DNA of 64,000 nt from a phage. The notes below the pieces were generated by a model, which was given only the letters and a program-made list of their open reading frames with translations, had not been told where the DNA came from and made no database searches. Both the position numbers and the translations under genes were made by a program. Positions 19,926 through 37,997 of the stretch are shown here, piece by piece. The stretch's first letter is position 1. Every line of letters begins with the position of its first letter. The stretch lies in sequence record OZ317122.1; one strand, 5' to 3'.

Positions 19926-19962
19926 CAAGACTACTATACCATAGTCTTGTCAGCTTGTAAAC
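19926..19962 (-). promoter_or_regulatory. early promoter for dmd with embedded 7-bp inverted repeat
   Basis: gtaaac at 19957-19962; caagact...agtcttg inverted repeat in the spacer. Confidence 0.4.
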
Positions 19963-21389
19963 TAAAATTTTAATTCATTTGCCAAAGCATCTAACTGTGC
20001 TCGAGTGGATTCATTTCTTTGATAGCGATTCTGCTCAGCCTGAATCTGTTGTGAACCTGCTACTTCACTCACTTCAGTTGGAGTAGAATCTTGTTCAATT
20101 TCTACCCATTTTTGGTTTCCTTTTTGAACACCCATCAAAAACTTATTCCATTTGTTCTTATCGCCATATCGTGATTTGATTTGCTTAATGAGTTGTTGTT
20201 CAGCAGCTGCTAGCTCCTCGGTTTCAATGACCGCAAGCATAAAATCAGCTGTTGCTGGAAGACCGGCAGATTCTGCGATATCACTCATGTTAACATCAGA
20301 AGAATCCCAAGCTTGTTTACCAACCTGTGCTGCAGTCCAAAGAACAGTTTCGGTTTCAACAGCAAGAGCACGCAATTCCTCTGCAATAGCTTTAACAGTT
20401 GTGTAACTATTTTCTGAATAAACTCTGATGCGACAAGATTTACAAATACCTAGATAGTCGACAATAATGATTGTTGGAACAAAATTCTTCTTGAGCTTTA
20501 ATTCATTTAAAAGTGATCGAAATGTATTAGCGTCTGCTCCACCAGTAGGATATTGCTTAACGATTAAACGACCAAGGGTAGATTTCTCACGCCATTTTTC
20601 CATTTTTCCTTTATACTCAGCGTAAGAAATATGTCCATCATCAATATCGTCAAGAGAAACATCGAGCATGTTAGCATCAATACGTTTAGCACAGACTTCT
20701 TCTGCCATTTCCATGGAGATATAAAGAACGTTATGACCAAGCTGCAAATAATCTGCTGCTAATGAACACAGACCTAATGACTTACCAACGTTAACGCCAG
20801 CCATTAAAACGTTCAGTGTTCCAGTCTCAGCTCCGCCTTTAGTAATTTTGTTTAGAATTCTGAGTTTAAATGGAACCTTACGAGCTTTATTCATATAAGA
20901 TAGCCAACGTGCTTCGTAGTCATCCATCCAATCATGACCAACGTAGCTATCAAATGAAATTGATAATGCTTGGCGCATGATGTCAGGAATAGCACCTACA
21001 TCTGGCATTTTCTTATTTCGTTTTTCCGGAGGAAGCTCAGCATTAGTTTGAATTTCGATTATTTTAGACGTAGCATTAAACATCGCCCTTTGCTGAACAT
21101 ATTTTTCTGTTTCTTTTATTAACCAACTGTGGTCTTCCGGAGAATCAGCCAGTTTTGAAATAAGTGTTTTTACACCAGAATATTCTGTTTCAGTAAATGA
21201 ACTATTTTCTAATGCAACATTTAACGCATTAATAGATGGAACGCTATGATACTCATTGACATGAGATTTAATTAATTTGAATGTATTTTTAGCTGGACCA
21301 CTTTCAAAATATTCTGAATCCATATATGGCCAAACTTTTGAAAAATAAGCTTGATCAAATATGAGATGAGAAAGAATAATTTCTACCAC
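19962..21389 (-). CDS. 41: replicative DNA helicase
   Basis: 475 aa; Walker A MAGVNVGKSLGL; size equals T4 gp41. Confidence 0.9.
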   Translation of the reverse strand: MVEIILSHLIFDQAYFSKVWPYMDSEYFESGPAKNTFKLIKSHVNEYHSVPSINALNVALENSSFTETEYSGVKTLISKLADSPEDHSWLIKETEKYVQQRAMFNATSKIIEIQTNAELPPEKRNKKMPDVGAIPDIMRQALSISFDSYVGHDWMDDYEARWLSYMNKARKVPFKLRILNKITKGGAETGTLNVLMAGVNVGKSLGLCSLAADYLQLGHNVLYISMEMAEEVCAKRIDANMLDVSLDDIDDGHISYAEYKGKMEKWREKSTLGRLIVKQYPTGGADANTFRSLLNELKLKKNFVPTIIIVDYLGICKSCRIRVYSENSYTTVKAIAEELRALAVETETVLWTAAQVGKQAWDSSDVNMSDIAESAGLPATADFMLAVIETEELAAAEQQLIKQIKSRYGDKNKWNKFLMGVQKGNQKWVEIEQDSTPTEVSEVAGSQQIQAEQNRYQRNESTRAQLDALANELKF

Positions 21390-21398
21390 ACTTACTCC

Positions 21399-21761
21399 TT
21401 AAAAGAATTTAAATTTTTTCTTTGACCTTTTATTAAATGCATCTTGTAGTTGCATTGTAATACATTTTTCTACATGAGGAGCTAACTCAGCTTTTCTTTC
21501 TTGGTCAAGAACAGCAAAGTCCATTACAACCTTTCCATCAACCCAATCCAGTTTAGTTACATACACTATATGTGTAGAACCATCTTCTAGTTTAATGACA
21601 ATCTCCTGGATAACATTTTCCATAGCAGATTTAATTATCTTAAGAGACTCATTAAAAAGACGTTCTTTTCTTTCTTCTTCCCCCTCCGAAGAGGGGGATT
21701 CATCGATAATTTCTAGATCTAAATCTAAATCATCTTTATTCATTAAATTCTTCCATATCAC
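21399..21761 (-). CDS. 40: gp40-like protein (head vertex assembly chaperone position)
   Basis: 120 aa ORF between 41 and uvsX. Confidence 0.55.
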   Translation of the reverse strand: MIWKNLMNKDDLDLDLEIIDESPSSEGEEERKERLFNESLKIIKSAMENVIQEIVIKLEDGSTHIVYVTKLDWVDGKVVMDFAVLDQERKAELAPHVEKCITMQLQDAFNKRSKKKFKFF

Positions 21762-22917
21762 TTAACTGTTCGAGGTCAGTTTCTAAATCAGCAGCTGATT
21801 TACTTTTACTTTCTGGAGATTTAAATTTTTCAACCTTTGAGTTAATCAATTCATCAACTTCAGCTTCAACAATTTCATTACTATCAATAGCACCTAACTG
21901 ATAAGCACGTTTAATAGCATCTCGGAATGGTTGATGCTTAAATAAAGGACCCCAGAATGTAGTGCAGTTGGTATCTTTTGCACGCCAAGATTTTTCTTCG
22001 CGAATCATCTCGCCGGTTTCTTCGTCAAGAAATTCACGAGCATACCAGCCATTTTTAGGTTTTACCACGAATCCTAATTCTAGAGCCATATCTAACAATC
22101 CAGAATAAGGATCGATACCACCGTCAAATTTAACATCAATAAAGAATTTACTTTTTTCTTTAACGGTACGAGATTTTTCTACATTTAGAACAAATTGATA
22201 CCCCTGAAGATCGGAACCATCTTTAATCTGGCGCTTACCGATAATGAATACAGTATCAGCCGAATACATTACGCCTGTACCACCTGTCATCACGGTTTTA
22301 CTAAACATTTCAATTGTTTCAATTGTATGGTTAACCGCAACACATGGAATGTTTTTAATACTAAAATAAGGAGTAACAATACGGAATAATGACTTCAGTG
22401 ATTTAGCACGAGTCATATCTGCCACAGATTTTTCATTCAAGGCATCTTCCGTTTCTTTCTTAGAAGCCATATTACCAATTGAGTCGATGAATACTATAAC
22501 CTTTTCACCACGCTCAATAGCTTCAAGCTGATTCACCATATCAATTTTCAGCTGTTCAACTGATTGAATTGGCGTATGAATTACACGTTCCGGGTCAACT
22601 CCCATGGATCGCAAATAAGCTGGAGTAATACCAAATTCGCTATCATAGAATAGACAAACCGCGTCAGGATATTTGTTCAAATATGCCGCAACCATAGTCA
22701 AAGACATATTTGATTTAAAGTGTTTAGAAGGCCCTGCGAAAATAGTTAAACCAGACTGCATACCGCCATCAATCGCACCAGAAATAGCAATATTAAGCAT
22801 TGGAATTTTTGTACGAATTACATCCTTTTCATTAAAGAATTTAGATGTAGTCAGTTCAGCAGTCATTTTAGAAGTGGAAGCTTTAATCAAACGGGATTTT
22901 AAATCTGCAATAGACAT
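21736..22917 (-). CDS. uvsX: UvsX recombinase (RecA-like)
   Basis: 393 aa; RecA-fold motifs; N-terminus ...DLKSRLIKASTSK. Confidence 0.9.
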   Translation of the reverse strand: MSIADLKSRLIKASTSKMTAELTTSKFFNEKDVIRTKIPMLNIAISGAIDGGMQSGLTIFAGPSKHFKSNMSLTMVAAYLNKYPDAVCLFYDSEFGITPAYLRSMGVDPERVIHTPIQSVEQLKIDMVNQLEAIERGEKVIVFIDSIGNMASKKETEDALNEKSVADMTRAKSLKSLFRIVTPYFSIKNIPCVAVNHTIETIEMFSKTVMTGGTGVMYSADTVFIIGKRQIKDGSDLQGYQFVLNVEKSRTVKEKSKFFIDVKFDGGIDPYSGLLDMALELGFVVKPKNGWYAREFLDEETGEMIREEKSWRAKDTNCTTFWGPLFKHQPFRDAIKRAYQLGAIDSNEIVEAEVDELINSKVEKFKSPESKSKSAADLETDLEQLSDMEEFNE

Positions 22918-22994
22918 TCATTTTTTCCATAGGCATCATTATATTTTCCTCACTGGTTAAAGATAGAGTAATTATAACACAATAAATTTAGGCA

Positions 22995-23837
22995 TTAATC
23001 AACTGCTATTGGATGAATAGCATTAAACTTATGAAATGCTTCTGATTTTTCTTTACGCGAAACGCACATGCGAAGAACCTTTAATGGCTCGTCTTCTTCA
23101 CCCAACGATTTTCGTTTTTCAATATTAGAAGTTTTCCAACGAGCTTGCTCTGGAAACTCTCTATTGATTTGCTCAAGCGCTCTATTATGTTTAGAATTAC
23201 TACGAATTGAACTACACCCGCCAGGAGCTTGTGCTTTTCCAGATACAACTAGATATTTGAACAAGGCCAAATGCGGATAACCTTGATTAATTAAATTGAG
23301 AAATGCATACATATCTTCGCATAAATCAATTTTTCCATACCCAATTTGTTCTGTCGTAAGTTTTCCGAGGTCATACCATGTATTCGTGAATCCATATGAA
23401 TTTTCACGATAATTACCCCAAGATGAAGTAATTTTAAAAATTGGTAGACGAGCATGACCGTGATAATACCCGCAATCCATGGCATCTTCAACATATTGAA
23501 TCAATTCATAGAACTGTTCACGAGTTAATTGATTAATTTTATCTACGCGCCGTTTATCGTCTCTCTTTCGTATTGAACTCATACGGATAGTAGTATCATC
23601 GTCAATCATCCAGATTCGTTGGCCTGCATACATATCAGTAATTGCTTTACGAGTACCGGCAATTCCGTTTACATCATCAGGAATAGTTATAATTTTAGCT
23701 CTAGACCCATAGGCATCATAATAAGCTTTTTCTTCATGTTCACGCACTACAATATGGGGTTCATAATCAGTCGGAAACATATCAAGGGCAGAAACTGCCC
23801 CGACACGCTGATAACTTGGAATTACGAATTGAATCAT
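22995..23837 (-). CDS. putative DNA-modifying glycosyltransferase at the beta-gt locus (not T4-type beta-gt)
   Basis: 280 aa; DxD-like IDDDTT; sits between uvsX and 42 where T4 has its 351-aa beta-gt. Confidence 0.45.
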   Translation of the reverse strand: MIQFVIPSYQRVGAVSALDMFPTDYEPHIVVREHEEKAYYDAYGSRAKIITIPDDVNGIAGTRKAITDMYAGQRIWMIDDDTTIRMSSIRKRDDKRRVDKINQLTREQFYELIQYVEDAMDCGYYHGHARLPIFKITSSWGNYRENSYGFTNTWYDLGKLTTEQIGYGKIDLCEDMYAFLNLINQGYPHLALFKYLVVSGKAQAPGGCSSIRSNSKHNRALEQINREFPEQARWKTSNIEKRKSLGEEDEPLKVLRMCVSRKEKSEAFHKFNAIHPIAVD

Positions 23838-24475
23838 TTAAGTGCCTTACATTTGTCAAAATGGTATCTTGTCATATTTGGCCCACGTCCTTTTAGTCCG
23901 CAATGCGGACATATTTTTTCTATCAAATTATGAGGTTTTCCTTTACGATTTTTAGACATCGTTTCTTTAATTATTTTAGCTTTTTCTACGCCAAAAATTT
24001 CTTCATAAGTTTTACCAGAATTTTCCTTGGCTCGATTTATAATTCCATATGCCTGCTCATTTTTACCATACATTGGATTACCTTCGCCTTTCATTCTTTT
24101 AGAATGATCAGGACGCTTGATTCCACGAAAGGCATTTCCGCACTTATATCTTTCTTCTGGAGATAGTTTTTTACCGTACATTCCATTTAATTTGCCTGGA
24201 AAACTTCCTCCCCATGCTTCATTCTTTAAATTATATGAATCCGGACAATTAGCAGCATCTAAACAAGTTAAAATAATTTCTTCAACCTGTCTAAACATTG
24301 GTCCTTCATATAATATTTCTTTATTAAAGGATTTTATTCCATATTTCTTTTTAGCATGTTGCCAAACTACACCCGAACCATCATAATTCGGGTTGTGACC
24401 ATCATGACTTCCTATATACCACTTTTTAGTTTTAGGATGTTTATACTTATAAACATGTGGCACATTTACTTCCAT
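23834..24475 (-). CDS. GIY-YIG homing endonuclease (Seg-like) with C-terminal zinc finger
   Basis: 213 aa; VYKYKHPKTKKWYIGS GIY-YIG motif; CPHCGLKGRGPNMTRYHFDKC; overlaps both neighbours. Confidence 0.75.
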   Translation of the reverse strand: MEVNVPHVYKYKHPKTKKWYIGSHDGHNPNYDGSGVVWQHAKKKYGIKSFNKEILYEGPMFRQVEEIILTCLDAANCPDSYNLKNEAWGGSFPGKLNGMYGKKLSPEERYKCGNAFRGIKRPDHSKRMKGEGNPMYGKNEQAYGIINRAKENSGKTYEEIFGVEKAKIIKETMSKNRKGKPHNLIEKICPHCGLKGRGPNMTRYHFDKCKALK

Positions 24476-25206
24476 TTTCCAGTATAATCCTTTTTAGCAA
24501 TATGAGTCTCACCGGTGTTCCACCAATGGTCAACTAAATAAAACTGATTTTCGTACACATGAAGACTTCCAACGTTCCATATAATAGAACCTGCTTTATA
24601 TTGCCGCGATGGGTCGCCTGCATTCAAATCAGATACTAATTTATCTAGTACGTATTTTTGCCAAGCATAATCATTACGATAGCCTGCCCAGCAATCATTG
24701 CTTCTCATGCTAACAACCGCATTGACTTTCTTATCACGAATCAGGTACTGTACTGTATTAGTACACATGAAATCTGACATACCATCTTTATTGTAGTCAA
24801 ACTGCATAGATGGACGAGTATAAATCATGATACCACGTCGAGAATCAGGATTTTGACCAAGTTCAGCTAAACACATATCATACTGGGCATAGTTATCTTC
24901 TGACCAAATAGCCCAACCATAATTCGAGTTAATTTCGCCTTTAGAAGATGCTACCTGCTGCCAAATCTTTGGTGTTTCACCTGGAATATCTTTAACAAAC
25001 AAACTCTTAGATTTATACCATTCAAGTTCACGCTGAATGTATTCATCATTAAGAGCGCCAAAAATAAACGGTTCATCTGCTACAAATGATGCGCCAATAA
25101 TTTCAATAGTTTTAACACCAGTTTTATCAACTACGAAATCTTTTTCTTTTAATGCAAGCCCCAAATGAAGACGGATTTCTTCAACTGTCATAGAGTCACT
25201 AATCAT
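24466..25206 (-). CDS. 42: dCMP hydroxymethylase
   Basis: 246 aa; N-terminus MISDSMTVEEIRLHLGLALKEKDF. Confidence 0.9.
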   Translation of the reverse strand: MISDSMTVEEIRLHLGLALKEKDFVVDKTGVKTIEIIGASFVADEPFIFGALNDEYIQRELEWYKSKSLFVKDIPGETPKIWQQVASSKGEINSNYGWAIWSEDNYAQYDMCLAELGQNPDSRRGIMIYTRPSMQFDYNKDGMSDFMCTNTVQYLIRDKKVNAVVSMRSNDCWAGYRNDYAWQKYVLDKLVSDLNAGDPSRQYKAGSIIWNVGSLHVYENQFYLVDHWWNTGETHIAKKDYTGKWK

Positions 25207-25359
25207 TTAAACCTCAATTGATACATTCATATTTAACTTGTAACAGTAATAAACTCCAACCTAAAATAATAGTTGGAATCATAAGAGGAACCGTTACACT
25301 ATAGTATATACTTATTATAATCATCAAGATTAAAAGCAATGCTGTTATAATTCTGCTTT

Positions 25360-25611
25360 TCATTCCTTCTCTCTGATGATAATTACCTGATTTGGTTGTG
25401 CAGACTTTTTAGTTTCACCCGCAATTGACCAAATAAATGTAATAAACCAACCAATAATTGACCAGTTAAACAGTAAAGATGTGAAAAAGATTCCTACTGT
25501 CGATTTTGACCCACGCATCAAAGCAATAAACCATGGAAGCATGTATATAATAATAGCCAACACGCCTGAAACTAAAACCATAAAAATTGAACCTGCTACT
25601 AAAGTTTCCAT
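25360..25611 (-). CDS. imm: Imm superinfection immunity membrane protein
   Basis: 83 aa, two hydrophobic helices. Confidence 0.8.
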   Translation of the reverse strand: METLVAGSIFMVLVSGVLAIIIYMLPWFIALMRGSKSTVGIFFTSLLFNWSIIGWFITFIWSIAGETKKSAQPNQVIIIREKE

Positions 25612-26429: not shown

Positions 26430-29126
26430 TCAGCCAAACAGGAAGTCTAACGAAGCTTTTTCTTCATAGTCCATACCAGCCGATTCACACATGCCCGCAA
26501 GCGGTTTAACAAACGATTTTTGGAACAAAGTTGAGTAGTCAATCCAAGACAGTACGTCAGAACGAATTTCTTTTGGAAGTTCTGTACCCGACGGCCAAGC
26601 AATGCATTTGTCACCAAATGGATTTCCTTCACGTAATGGAAGAACCATTACTTTATTTCCATCCAAAATTGGAGCTACACCCAGACCACTAACAGCTCGA
26701 CGATAAGTTAGCACACCGCGAATATGGAACGGGCATTTAAATCCTGGCCAACCTTTATCATCATATTTCGCTATATCGTTCGCAGTTTTTACTTCAGCAA
26801 TAACTTTATAGTCAAGTTGACGATATTCTTTCTCGAAGTTCTTGTAGTATTCTTGGACAGACTCTTCACCTTCTTGAAGAATACGACGAATACTTTCTTC
26901 GAGAGCTTCTTGCACTGCTTTTGGTGTTGAACTCTGCTGAGTTTCCATACCCATGATTTTTAGATGCGGTTCAGCAAATCGTTTATCTTCCATATCATAA
27001 ACGTTCAGGGCATAACGCTTTTTCGCTTTCCAAAATCCACCAACACCCTTTGAACCAAGTGGAGGGCAAGAAATAGCTTCACGGTCCATATGCATCAGAT
27101 GCTCGCGGTTATTCATATAATCACATAACTCACGATATGCAACATCAATCATAGGTTCCATCTTTTTCTTACCGAACTGATTCATGAATTCAACTAAATC
27201 GTTCTGCTCTTTGAATCGGTCAAGACCAACTTTTTCAATAACTTTATCTACACAAACATATACCGAATCAGTATCACCTGCTGCGATGAAATCTTCACCA
27301 TTAGTTCCGCATACTTTATTCAGATATTCATTAATTTTACGAGCAATCCACTGAATACCAACTTGGCCGAAAATTGTGATAGCAGTAGCATTTCGCAAAT
27401 CATAGTAACGGAAATGAATATTACCAAGAGCACCATAAAGACTGTTAATAAGAATTTTACGGTTCAGCTGATTTGTATTAGCAAGTGTAGCTGCTTTTTC
27501 ACATTCTTCAATCAGACTATTGAGAACAGATTCAGTATAATTCGACAGTTCATTTAAGAAATCATCACTGAACTTAACATATCGTTCAACTTCTGGTTTA
27601 GTTGAACAAGACCCTGCGCCTTTCATAATAATCTTTTTAATAGCTTCGGCATTCATTTCTTCAGCGAACATTTTCTTTTTCCAGTCTTTACGCTGGAAAA
27701 ATACTTTAGCGATTTCCTTTGGAATGATACCTTCTTGATGCTTATCATACATCCATCCATTCGGAGAACAAGAATATTCTTCACTTGGCTTAGGAGCTGT
27801 TCCTGCGATATATTCATGAATTGGATGAACTTTAAATTGTCCACGAATAGTCTCAGGACTAATGTTAACCTGACGAATAATGCTCGGATACAGAGACGTC
27901 AAGTCAAAACTCATAATATATCGACGAGCAATTGGTTTAGGTTCAAACACAAATGCACCCGGAAAACTCTGTTTAACGTGCGAACCTTGTTGAGGAATAA
28001 CCTTATGTTCACCTTTCAATGAGTTAAAAATAATAGCATCCCAAGTTTTAATAGGACTCATTACACCAGAAAAAGGCATTTTAGCATAATAAGACATACT
28101 TAAAACTAGATCGATAAACCCGCGAATTTTATCAATTGCTTGAACTGATTCTACGTCAATGATGTTATAACTAATGTATCGTTGATGATTAGTCTCACGG
28201 AGTTTATTAATAGGACCGTCGTATGGTAATTTACCTTTTTTGGTTTCATGTTGAGCAACTGATTCCAAAGAGAATGACGGCAAATTAGTAAAAGCGAATT
28301 TCTTGTACAAATCTAAATAATCAAGAATAGATACGCCATCAATAGAATAAATTTCTTTGCTACCGTACATATTTTGAATTAGTTTAGATTTTACCCGACC
28401 GATTGGAGAGAAACGTTTCATACTACGTTCACCTAGAATCATTTTAACGCGATTCATGATATACGGAACGTCAAATCCCTCAATATTCCAACCAGTAAAA
28501 ATAGCAGGTCGTTTCTGTTCCCAGAGATTGATATATTCCATGAGCATATCACGCTCATTATCGAATGGCATATAAATTACTCGGTCAAGAATTTCTTGAG
28601 GAACTTCATCACCACCTTCACAGTCAAGCTTAGCAGCTAACTTTGCATCCCATTTTGATACTGAACCGTACATTGAATTCAAAAGGTCGAAAACATAAAA
28701 ACGATCATCAATTGAATCGTAATGAGTGATAGCATCAATTTCATATTCAGCTTTCATTGGGTCAGGAAATTTATCACCAGTAACCTCAATGTCACAGTTA
28801 GCTACACGAACAAATTTTCGGTCATAAACAATTTCTGAACCATACGTATCACTGATATAAGCGAGTTTAAAATCGTTCATACCAAGAGCTTCGAGACCGA
28901 TGTCTTCCATTCGCTTCATCCAATCTCGAGCATCTTTCATTGATTGAAATTTTTGAGGAGCGCAATTTTTACCATAAATGTCTTTGTACTTTGACTCTTC
29001 CTTACAATGCCTAAACATAGTTGGAAGATATTCTACTTCACGAGTACGTTCCTTTCCGTTTTCATCAATATAACGTTCAACAATGTTATTTCCGACTGTT
29101 TCGATAGAGATATAAAATTCTTTCAT
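26430..29126 (-). CDS. 43: DNA polymerase (family B) with 3'-5' exonuclease
   Basis: 898 aa; MKEFYISIETVGNNIVERYIDENGKER; size equals T4 gp43. Confidence 0.95.
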   Translation of the reverse strand: MKEFYISIETVGNNIVERYIDENGKERTREVEYLPTMFRHCKEESKYKDIYGKNCAPQKFQSMKDARDWMKRMEDIGLEALGMNDFKLAYISDTYGSEIVYDRKFVRVANCDIEVTGDKFPDPMKAEYEIDAITHYDSIDDRFYVFDLLNSMYGSVSKWDAKLAAKLDCEGGDEVPQEILDRVIYMPFDNERDMLMEYINLWEQKRPAIFTGWNIEGFDVPYIMNRVKMILGERSMKRFSPIGRVKSKLIQNMYGSKEIYSIDGVSILDYLDLYKKFAFTNLPSFSLESVAQHETKKGKLPYDGPINKLRETNHQRYISYNIIDVESVQAIDKIRGFIDLVLSMSYYAKMPFSGVMSPIKTWDAIIFNSLKGEHKVIPQQGSHVKQSFPGAFVFEPKPIARRYIMSFDLTSLYPSIIRQVNISPETIRGQFKVHPIHEYIAGTAPKPSEEYSCSPNGWMYDKHQEGIIPKEIAKVFFQRKDWKKKMFAEEMNAEAIKKIIMKGAGSCSTKPEVERYVKFSDDFLNELSNYTESVLNSLIEECEKAATLANTNQLNRKILINSLYGALGNIHFRYYDLRNATAITIFGQVGIQWIARKINEYLNKVCGTNGEDFIAAGDTDSVYVCVDKVIEKVGLDRFKEQNDLVEFMNQFGKKKMEPMIDVAYRELCDYMNNREHLMHMDREAISCPPLGSKGVGGFWKAKKRYALNVYDMEDKRFAEPHLKIMGMETQQSSTPKAVQEALEESIRRILQEGEESVQEYYKNFEKEYRQLDYKVIAEVKTANDIAKYDDKGWPGFKCPFHIRGVLTYRRAVSGLGVAPILDGNKVMVLPLREGNPFGDKCIAWPSGTELPKEIRSDVLSWIDYSTLFQKSFVKPLAGMCESAGMDYEEKASLDFLFG

Positions 29127-36778: not shown

Positions 36779-36796
36779 AAAGGGCCGAAGCCCTTT
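36779..36796 (-). terminator. terminator after alpha-gt (UUCG hairpin plus U-rich tract)
   Basis: aaagggc-cgaa-gcccttt overlapping the stop codon. Confidence 0.55.
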
Positions 36797-37997
36797 ATTT
36801 TGTAATAATGTCAAACTGTTCTTTAAAGCAGAAGCTTGAATCTTGATGCTGATACAAAAATTCATAAGCTTTTTCGCGTTCACGGTCATAAAGAGTTCGG
36901 TCAGATGACAGTTCTTTAATACGTTCAAATGTTGATTCCATGTCATTTTCATCAAACCAAATGATACCGCTATCATGCGAGGTCAAAGGAGTATTATCAA
37001 CACGGAATTTTAAATTTTCGCCAGTAGATTTCCAAAATACCGGAATTGTTCCACATGCACCAAGCTCGAGATGAGTATATTCTAAAGAACGTTGTAGATA
37101 TTTTTTGTCCAACTTACTCAGCTGATAACCAAATCCGGATTTACTCATGCGTTCAAGCATTTCGCTATTTACATAACGGTCAAGAATTTGCGTTGGCAAA
37201 TTAGGAGCAATTTTAATTTGGTCTACTTGATGAAGACGATAATACTCGTATGGAATTCCTTTTTCTTTAATAGGAATGAACGCTGGAGAACGTTCCAGAC
37301 CTTCCATAATAGTACTTAGTCCTGCAGGTTTAAGATGTTTTTCATGAAAATCAAACATCTGATAAAAACCTTTCCATGTAGTCGTACGACCAATCCAACG
37401 GTTGATATTCATGTTAATTTCAGAAACATCTTTCCAGTAGGTTGACCGAACCTTCGCAATATCCATAGGAGGCTGAAAGTTATATACGGTCGGTGCTTCT
37501 TCAATATCATCAAACAGAGAAACTGTTTCTGGATACCATTCTTTCATCAGAACTTTATTAAAATCACCATTATCAGAATGGCTAAAAATAACATCAGCTC
37601 GACGAACAGTTTCTTCTAATCCCAAATTTCGGCGCAAAGAAAGAGAAGAATGGTCATGTTGATAAACTACAACACGAACAGAAGGTTTAATGTTATCAAT
37701 AATTTTTTTATAGTTATTAATAGTGTCTTCTTCAACCGAAGTAGCAGGAACTGAATTGATAATTAGAATATCACAATCATTTACCAGCTTAAGTGTTTTA
37801 TCGTATTCTTTTGCTAATAAAACCGGAATTGAAAATGATTTATAATCATGCGCACAATTACGAGTAAATGATTTATCTTTAGCATAAACCAAAGTTACTT
37901 CATGACCATTTTTAATAAACCAATCACGTTGCTCGAGTGAGAATTTTGTTACACCACAACCTTCAAGACCTCGAGCCATAAAAATACATACTTTCAT
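36795..37997 (-). CDS. agt: DNA alpha-glucosyltransferase
   Basis: 400 aa; ...CIFMARGLEGCGVTKFSLEQRDWFIKNGHEVTLVYAKDKSF. Confidence 0.9.
   Translation of the reverse strand: MKVCIFMARGLEGCGVTKFSLEQRDWFIKNGHEVTLVYAKDKSFTRNCAHDYKSFSIPVLLAKEYDKTLKLVNDCDILIINSVPATSVEEDTINNYKKIIDNIKPSVRVVVYQHDHSSLSLRRNLGLEETVRRADVIFSHSDNGDFNKVLMKEWYPETVSLFDDIEEAPTVYNFQPPMDIAKVRSTYWKDVSEINMNINRWIGRTTTWKGFYQMFDFHEKHLKPAGLSTIMEGLERSPAFIPIKEKGIPYEYYRLHQVDQIKIAPNLPTQILDRYVNSEMLERMSKSGFGYQLSKLDKKYLQRSLEYTHLELGACGTIPVFWKSTGENLKFRVDNTPLTSHDSGIIWFDENDMESTFERIKELSSDRTLYDREREKAYEFLYQHQDSSFCFKEQFDIITK

Follow-up and report, generated by a model that had tools for sequence, protein, structure and literature searches.

A probable T2/T6-type beta-glucosyl-HMC-alpha-glucosyltransferase gene at the b-gt locus of a Tequatrovirus

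The window that we analysed is a stretch of 64,000 nucleotides of phage DNA. In the interval between uvsX and gene 42, where T4 carries its beta-glucosyltransferase gene (b-gt), it holds an intact open reading frame (ORF) that starts with ATG and has a product of exactly 280 aa, as a preliminary description of this DNA had reported. It belongs to a block of T4-type genes for replication and recombination, all read in the same direction. The features of this block, together with the alpha-glucosyltransferase gene further along, are as follows:

19962..21389, gene 41 helicase (ORF listing)
between gene 41 and uvsX, gene 40
21736..22917, uvsX, downstream of ba-gt; Pfam T4_UVSX_C (E 5e-39) and RecA
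22995..23837, minus strand, ba-gt (also called ggt or TAGT), 280 aa; predicted GT-A fold, putative beta-glucosyl-HMC-alpha-glucosyltransferase
23595..23603, minus strand, codons of D79-D80-D81 within the DxD-type motif IDDDTT (residues 78-83)
23834..24475, minus strand, 213-aa homing-endonuclease-like ORF, between ba-gt and gene 42
24466..25206, minus strand, gene 42, dCMP hydroxymethylase, 246 aa, upstream of ba-gt; Pfam Thymidylat_synt (E 1.3e-14)
between gene 42 and gene 43, imm and imm.1
26430..29126, gene 43 DNA polymerase (ORF listing)
36795..37997, minus strand, alpha-gt, DNA alpha-glucosyltransferase, 400 aa; Pfam PF11440 AGT (E 4.3e-237)

The counterpart of gene 42 is labelled dCMP hydroxymethylase in both the T4 and the T6 records. 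The earlier placement of the 280-aa ORF between uvsX and gene 42 holds for the window, with the addition that the 213-aa ORF keeps it from abutting gene 42. The T4 arrangement described earlier, a 351-aa b-gt in the interval from uvsX to gene 42, agrees with NC_000866, where b-gt has 1056 nt. One detail is added: segA separates uvsX from b-gt there. The alpha-gt gene had been described as conserved and is indeed full-length, its PF11440 match spanning profile positions 1-354 of 355. Over 24 kb around the gene, many Tequatrovirus genomes match the window at 96-98% identity, which makes the window part of an ordinary phage of that genus.

The GC content of the 280-aa ORF (0.35-0.37) equals that of the neighbouring genes, so composition shows no sign of foreign origin. 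The ORF is a real gene. Codon differences are mostly synonymous, both from T2 (23 synonymous, 6 non-synonymous) and from T6 (33 and 8), which fits a gene under purifying selection. Given this divergence pattern and full-length copies in 475 phage records, we rejected a pseudogene or chance ORF. Two ORFs on the plus strand that overlap ba-gt (23068..23280 and 23619..23933) were dismissed as mechanical and without support. A scan of 22700..25500 for promoters and terminators returned sites no more numerous than in shuffled sequence, and a minus-strand hairpin at 23801..23785 was not taken as a terminator because it lies within the coding region.

Profile searches consistently assign the protein to one glycosyltransferase family. 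It matches PHROG 842, 'beta-glucosyl-HMC-alpha-glucosyltransferase', over residues 1-275 (E 1.5e-88). A second match is to Pfam PF20691, TAGT (TET-associated glycosyltransferase): its 40.7 bits exceed the gathering score of 27.5, and ORF residues 3-207 align to profile positions 2-205 of 205. The Pfam search of the 280-aa protein found no family besides TAGT, and homologues in the protein database bear the same precomputed TAGT domain. NCBIfam has no model for either glucosyltransferase. At the same locus in T2 (AP018813), the product of an 843-nt ORF is identical at 274 of 280 residues (98%), and the ORF products of both T6 records are 97% identical to the window protein. The suggestion that the locus encodes a T2/T6-like second-glucose transferase is thus borne out by homology search.

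The protein is equally clearly not the T4 enzyme. When the 280-aa protein was compared with T4 b-gt by BLASTP, no similarity emerged (best E = 4), in line with the lack of resemblance to the T4 N-terminus noted earlier; nor does the protein belong to the family of the T4 beta-glucosyltransferase (Pfam PF09198, cited in PMC13216743). A tblastn search with T4 b-gt against the 64-kb window (of a ~168-kb genome) gave nothing better than E = 1.4. As a T4-type beta-gt is absent from the 64-kb window, beta-monoglucosyl-hmC is not expected in the DNA of this phage.

This arrangement is widespread. By megablast, ba-gt is present full-length at 90% nucleotide identity or more in 475 phage records, from Tequatroviruses of Escherichia, Shigella, Yersinia, Salmonella and Citrobacter; many of these records name the gene beta-glucosyl-HMC-alpha-glucosyltransferase. 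T4-type b-gt occurs in only 29 phage records. T4, RB55, RB59 and laboratory derivatives of T4 make up most of them, and about a dozen come from other isolates, among which are the seven Pu-Krd-SF phages. None of the window's nearest relatives is among these 29. Likewise, an alpha-GT or a beta-GT together with a TAGT has been described as the normal state across RefSeq and nr, and alpha-GT and beta-GT occur together in only 6 of 753 phage genomes (PMC13216743). With 475 records against 29, what the preliminary description framed as an unusual replacement is the majority state of the genus: ba-gt is the rule and T4 the exception. Note that three records, KM607002 (RB55), KM607003 (RB59) and PP434423, label a T4-type b-gt as 'beta-glucosyl-HMC-alpha-glucosyl-transferase'. 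These mislabelled genes are 97-100% identical to T4 b-gt, and the naming error could mislead annotation transfer.

In a search through 5.8 billion proteins we obtained homologues with 78%, 64-66%, 49-52% (a group that includes the homologue of Serratia phage PS2) and 28% identity to the 280-aa protein. The DxD-like motif IDDDTT had already been singled out at residues 78-83; D79, D80 and D81 are unchanged in 10 of 10 homologues, down to about 30% identity. Further invariant positions in the same alignment are I6-P7-S8-Y9-x-R11, G58-I59, T62-R63, G206-G207 and R212.

A PDB sequence search with the 280-aa protein found nothing at E <= 1, and the evidence on fold is therefore drawn from a predicted model. 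The AlphaFold2 model, built on the homologue alignment, has a pTM of 0.76 and a mean pLDDT of 73; confidence is 82-94 over the first ~120 residues and low at residues 127-141 and 197-211. It consists of one Rossmann-like domain, layered alpha/beta/alpha, and is similar to solved GT-A enzymes of the nucleotide-diphospho-sugar transferase fold, among them cellulose synthase BcsA, WrtF, chondroitin synthase, AvpGT, GalNAc-T1, mannosylglycerate synthase, GlfT2, TarP and TarS. The DDD directly follows the strand formed by residues 74-79, at the end of beta-4. From what is generally known of GT-A enzymes, this DDD presumably binds metal and the UDP-sugar. The predicted GT-A fold agrees with published work (PMC13216743), in which TAGT was identified as the ba-GT, the T6 TAGT was assigned a GT-A fold, phage TAGTs were placed as the sister group of GT2, and the alpha-GT and beta-GT of T4 were assigned to GT-B.

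On this evidence, the minus-strand gene at 22995..23837 is very probably a T2/T6-type ba-gt of the Pfam TAGT family, which would give gentiobiosyl-hmC together with gene 42 and alpha-gt. The present analysis supplies the identity and synteny of the gene, its predicted fold, the conservation of its motifs and its occurrence alongside alpha-gt; for the chemistry and phenotype we rely on publications about T2, T6 and their close relatives. We infer that the window's own ba-gt allele has glucosyltransferase activity.

All three genes of the proposed pathway lie within the window. The gene 42 product would make hydroxymethyl-dCMP, through which hmC is incorporated into phage DNA, and alpha-gt would then move glucose from UDP-glucose onto hmC in alpha linkage. 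With its predicted GT-A fold, and with the DDD binding metal and UDP-glucose, the ba-gt product would add a second glucose to the first through a beta-1,6 bond. The outcome would be gentiobiosyl-hmC, a doubly glucosylated base that would alter which defences act on the DNA, among them Brig1-type glycosylases, BapA and GmrSD/BrxU.

Published work on relatives describes both the chemistry and its consequences. T6 lacking ba-gt has only alpha-glucosyl-hmC and no gentiobiosyl-hmC (PMC11078745; bioRxiv 10.64898/2026.02.25.707755). The same deletion makes T6 more sensitive to Brig1 glycosylase (PMC11078745), and the DNA of T6 delta-g-gt becomes a BapA substrate (bioRxiv 10.64898/2026.02.25.707755). 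The earlier expectation that the sugar pattern changes susceptibility to host nucleases is supported by published effects on host defences (Brig1, BapA, GmrSD/BrxU). Environmental Tequatroviruses with alpha-GT and TAGT and without beta-GT were found by HPLC/MS to contain 5-hmdC, alpha-glucosyl-hmdC and gentiobiosyl-hmdC, and beta-glucosyl-hmC was not detected in them by LC-MS (PMC13390438). The gentiobiosyl share of hmC is 5% in T2 and 72% in T6, with ~25% left bare (PMC6024577, PMC11078745, bioRxiv 10.64898/2026.02.25.707755), and about 40-67% in environmental Tequatroviruses (Durham phages) with alpha-GT and TAGT (PMC13390438). Conversion thus varies widely among near-identical ba-gt genes, and the extent of gentiobiosylation is not predictable from sequence.

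This variation bears on how active the window's allele would be. It might be a true ba-gt orthologue that is as weak as the T2 enzyme, leaving DNA that is mostly alpha-monoglucosylated, with ~5% gentiobiosyl-hmC and ~25% bare hmC. The window protein is, after all, 98% identical to that of T2, which converts only ~5% of hmC; alpha-gt, the level of expression or its timing may also influence how much hmC is converted; and upstream of ba-gt lies an endonuclease ORF in place of gene 42, a change that could affect translational coupling. Nevertheless, the window has the family consensus at R11 and P251, where T2 has H and S, and environmental Tequatroviruses of the same gene set reach the much higher contents given above. 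We therefore regard weak, T2-like activity as distinctly unlikely.

Two other explanations concern the reaction itself. A position syntenic with T4 beta-gt might suggest a first-step transferase that glucosylates bare hmC as a functional analogue of the T4 enzyme, and some family members may act on other acceptors, given that 288 of 753 phage genomes hold a distant TAGT homologue with neither alpha-GT nor beta-GT (PMC13216743). Yet T2 and T6 keep ~25% of their hmC unglucosylated despite having ba-gt, T6 without ba-gt keeps ~75% alpha-glucosyl-hmC and loses the second glucose alone, and beta-glucosyl-hmC goes undetected in relatives of the same gene set (PMC13390438). With a window protein 97-98% identical to the T2 and T6 enzymes, this explanation is very improbable, and the results published for the T6 deletion and from LC-MS led us to reject an hmC-directed transferase. 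The ORF could also encode a protein with a Rossmann-like fold that is not a glycosyltransferase, such as a nucleotidyltransferase; sugar-1-phosphate nucleotidyltransferases of the same fold class score similarly to GT2-type enzymes against the model. However, these nucleotidyltransferases belong to the same nucleotide-diphospho-sugar transferase fold class, and the GT2-type enzymes score equally well over longer alignments (165-178 residues). Pfam and PHROG both assign a glycosyltransferase family, and the T6 deletion loses the second glucose, which leaves this last alternative barely credible. A second-glucose transferase of the T2/T6 type is the reading that we retain.

The T2 and T6 alleles carry changes of their own. 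The ba-gt of T2 (AP018813, 4283..5125) differs from the window protein at 6 residues, and two of these differences fall at conserved family columns: R11H at an invariant position and P251S at one that is at least 90% conserved. Judging from these sequences, R11H and P251S could be a cause of the low (~5%) gentiobiosylation of T2. Both public T6 records have lesions in ba-gt. In MH550421 (4138..4980), codon 10 is an amber TAG and the CDS is annotated from M20 (261 aa), so that the invariant IPSYxR segment is lost. In AP018814 (3135..3974), a one-codon deletion removes one Asp from the invariant DDD. Such lesions are odd in a phage reported to have the highest gentiobiosyl content, and they may be laboratory-stock mutations.

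The 213-aa ORF next to ba-gt is seg-like, of the GIY-YIG/NUMOD3 homing endonuclease type. It matches PHROG 314, 'homing endonuclease' (E 2e-31), has sub-threshold NUMOD3 and TIGR01453 matches, and is 32% identical to T4 SegA (E 4e-9). It shares 10 nt with gene 42 at the stop of that gene, and at its other end the sequence ATGA holds both its own stop and the start of ba-gt; through these overlaps the insertion keeps the gene 42/ba-gt coupling junction of T2, T6 and e11/2, phages from which this ORF is absent. We found it in 78 phage records at 98-100% identity, always at this site and mostly annotated 'hypothetical protein'. In a nucleotide alignment with the endonuclease-free phage e11/2, the first ~535 nt of gene 42 are identical. 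The last ~250 nt (24466..24720, minus strand) carry clustered, mostly synonymous substitutions, including a recoded patch from SMRSNDVVFGFRN to SMRSNDCWAGYRN and a change from SRH to ENQ near the C-terminus. This pattern looks like a cleavage-resistant endonuclease target with a co-conversion tract.

Both alternative glucosyltransferase cassettes of this locus adjoin a GIY-YIG seg-type gene: segA with b-gt in T4, and the 213-aa ORF with ba-gt in the window. One might propose that gene conversion driven by the endonuclease actively spreads the sugar-modification cassette, or swaps it, between T-even phages that infect the same cell and that, separately, R11H and P251S explain the 5% gentiobiosylation of T2. 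We put this forward tentatively, as a possibility that we think rather unlikely. If true, cassette conversion would link selfish homing to the diversification of DNA hypermodification.

The gene, its product, fold class, distribution and counter-defence role were all published before. The value of the result lies in annotation: the gene at 22995..23837 receives a definite name and function, and no new biological question is raised. It also has practical uses. The DNA of this phage is predicted to contain hmC, alpha-glucosyl-hmC and gentiobiosyl-hmC, without beta-glucosyl-hmC, and the predicted modification bears on the choice of restriction enzymes and sequencing chemistries. Furthermore, it helps to predict how sensitive the phage would be to Brig1-type glycosylases, BapA and type IV systems of the GmrSD/BrxU kind in hosts treated by phage therapy.

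The closest known systems are the ba-gt genes of T2 and T6. These share with the window gene the product length of 280 aa, the uvsX-to-gene 42 locus, the alpha-gt partner and the DDD, IPSY and R11 motifs. In T2, T6 and e11/2, ba-gt and gene 42 overlap directly, whereas in the window the 213-aa endonuclease ORF intervenes. The window gene also differs in having neither the R11H and P251S changes of T2 nor the lesions of both T6 records. T4 b-gt (351 aa, PDB 1JG7 as cited in PMC13216743) shares the uvsX-to-42 neighbourhood, and the two enzymes are alike in using a UDP-glucose donor, in forming a beta-linked product and in completing glucosylation started by alpha-gt. They differ in fold (GT-B for T4 b-gt, predicted GT-A for the window protein), in acceptor (bare hmC versus the glucose of alpha-glucosyl-hmC) and in product (beta-glucosyl-hmC versus gentiobiosyl-hmC). 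Among cellular proteins, the GT2 GT-A enzymes, such as the cellulose synthase catalytic domain, TarP/TarS and the PglH-like AvpGT, resemble ba-gt in predicted fold and, like it, place a DxD-type acidic motif after the fourth beta-strand.
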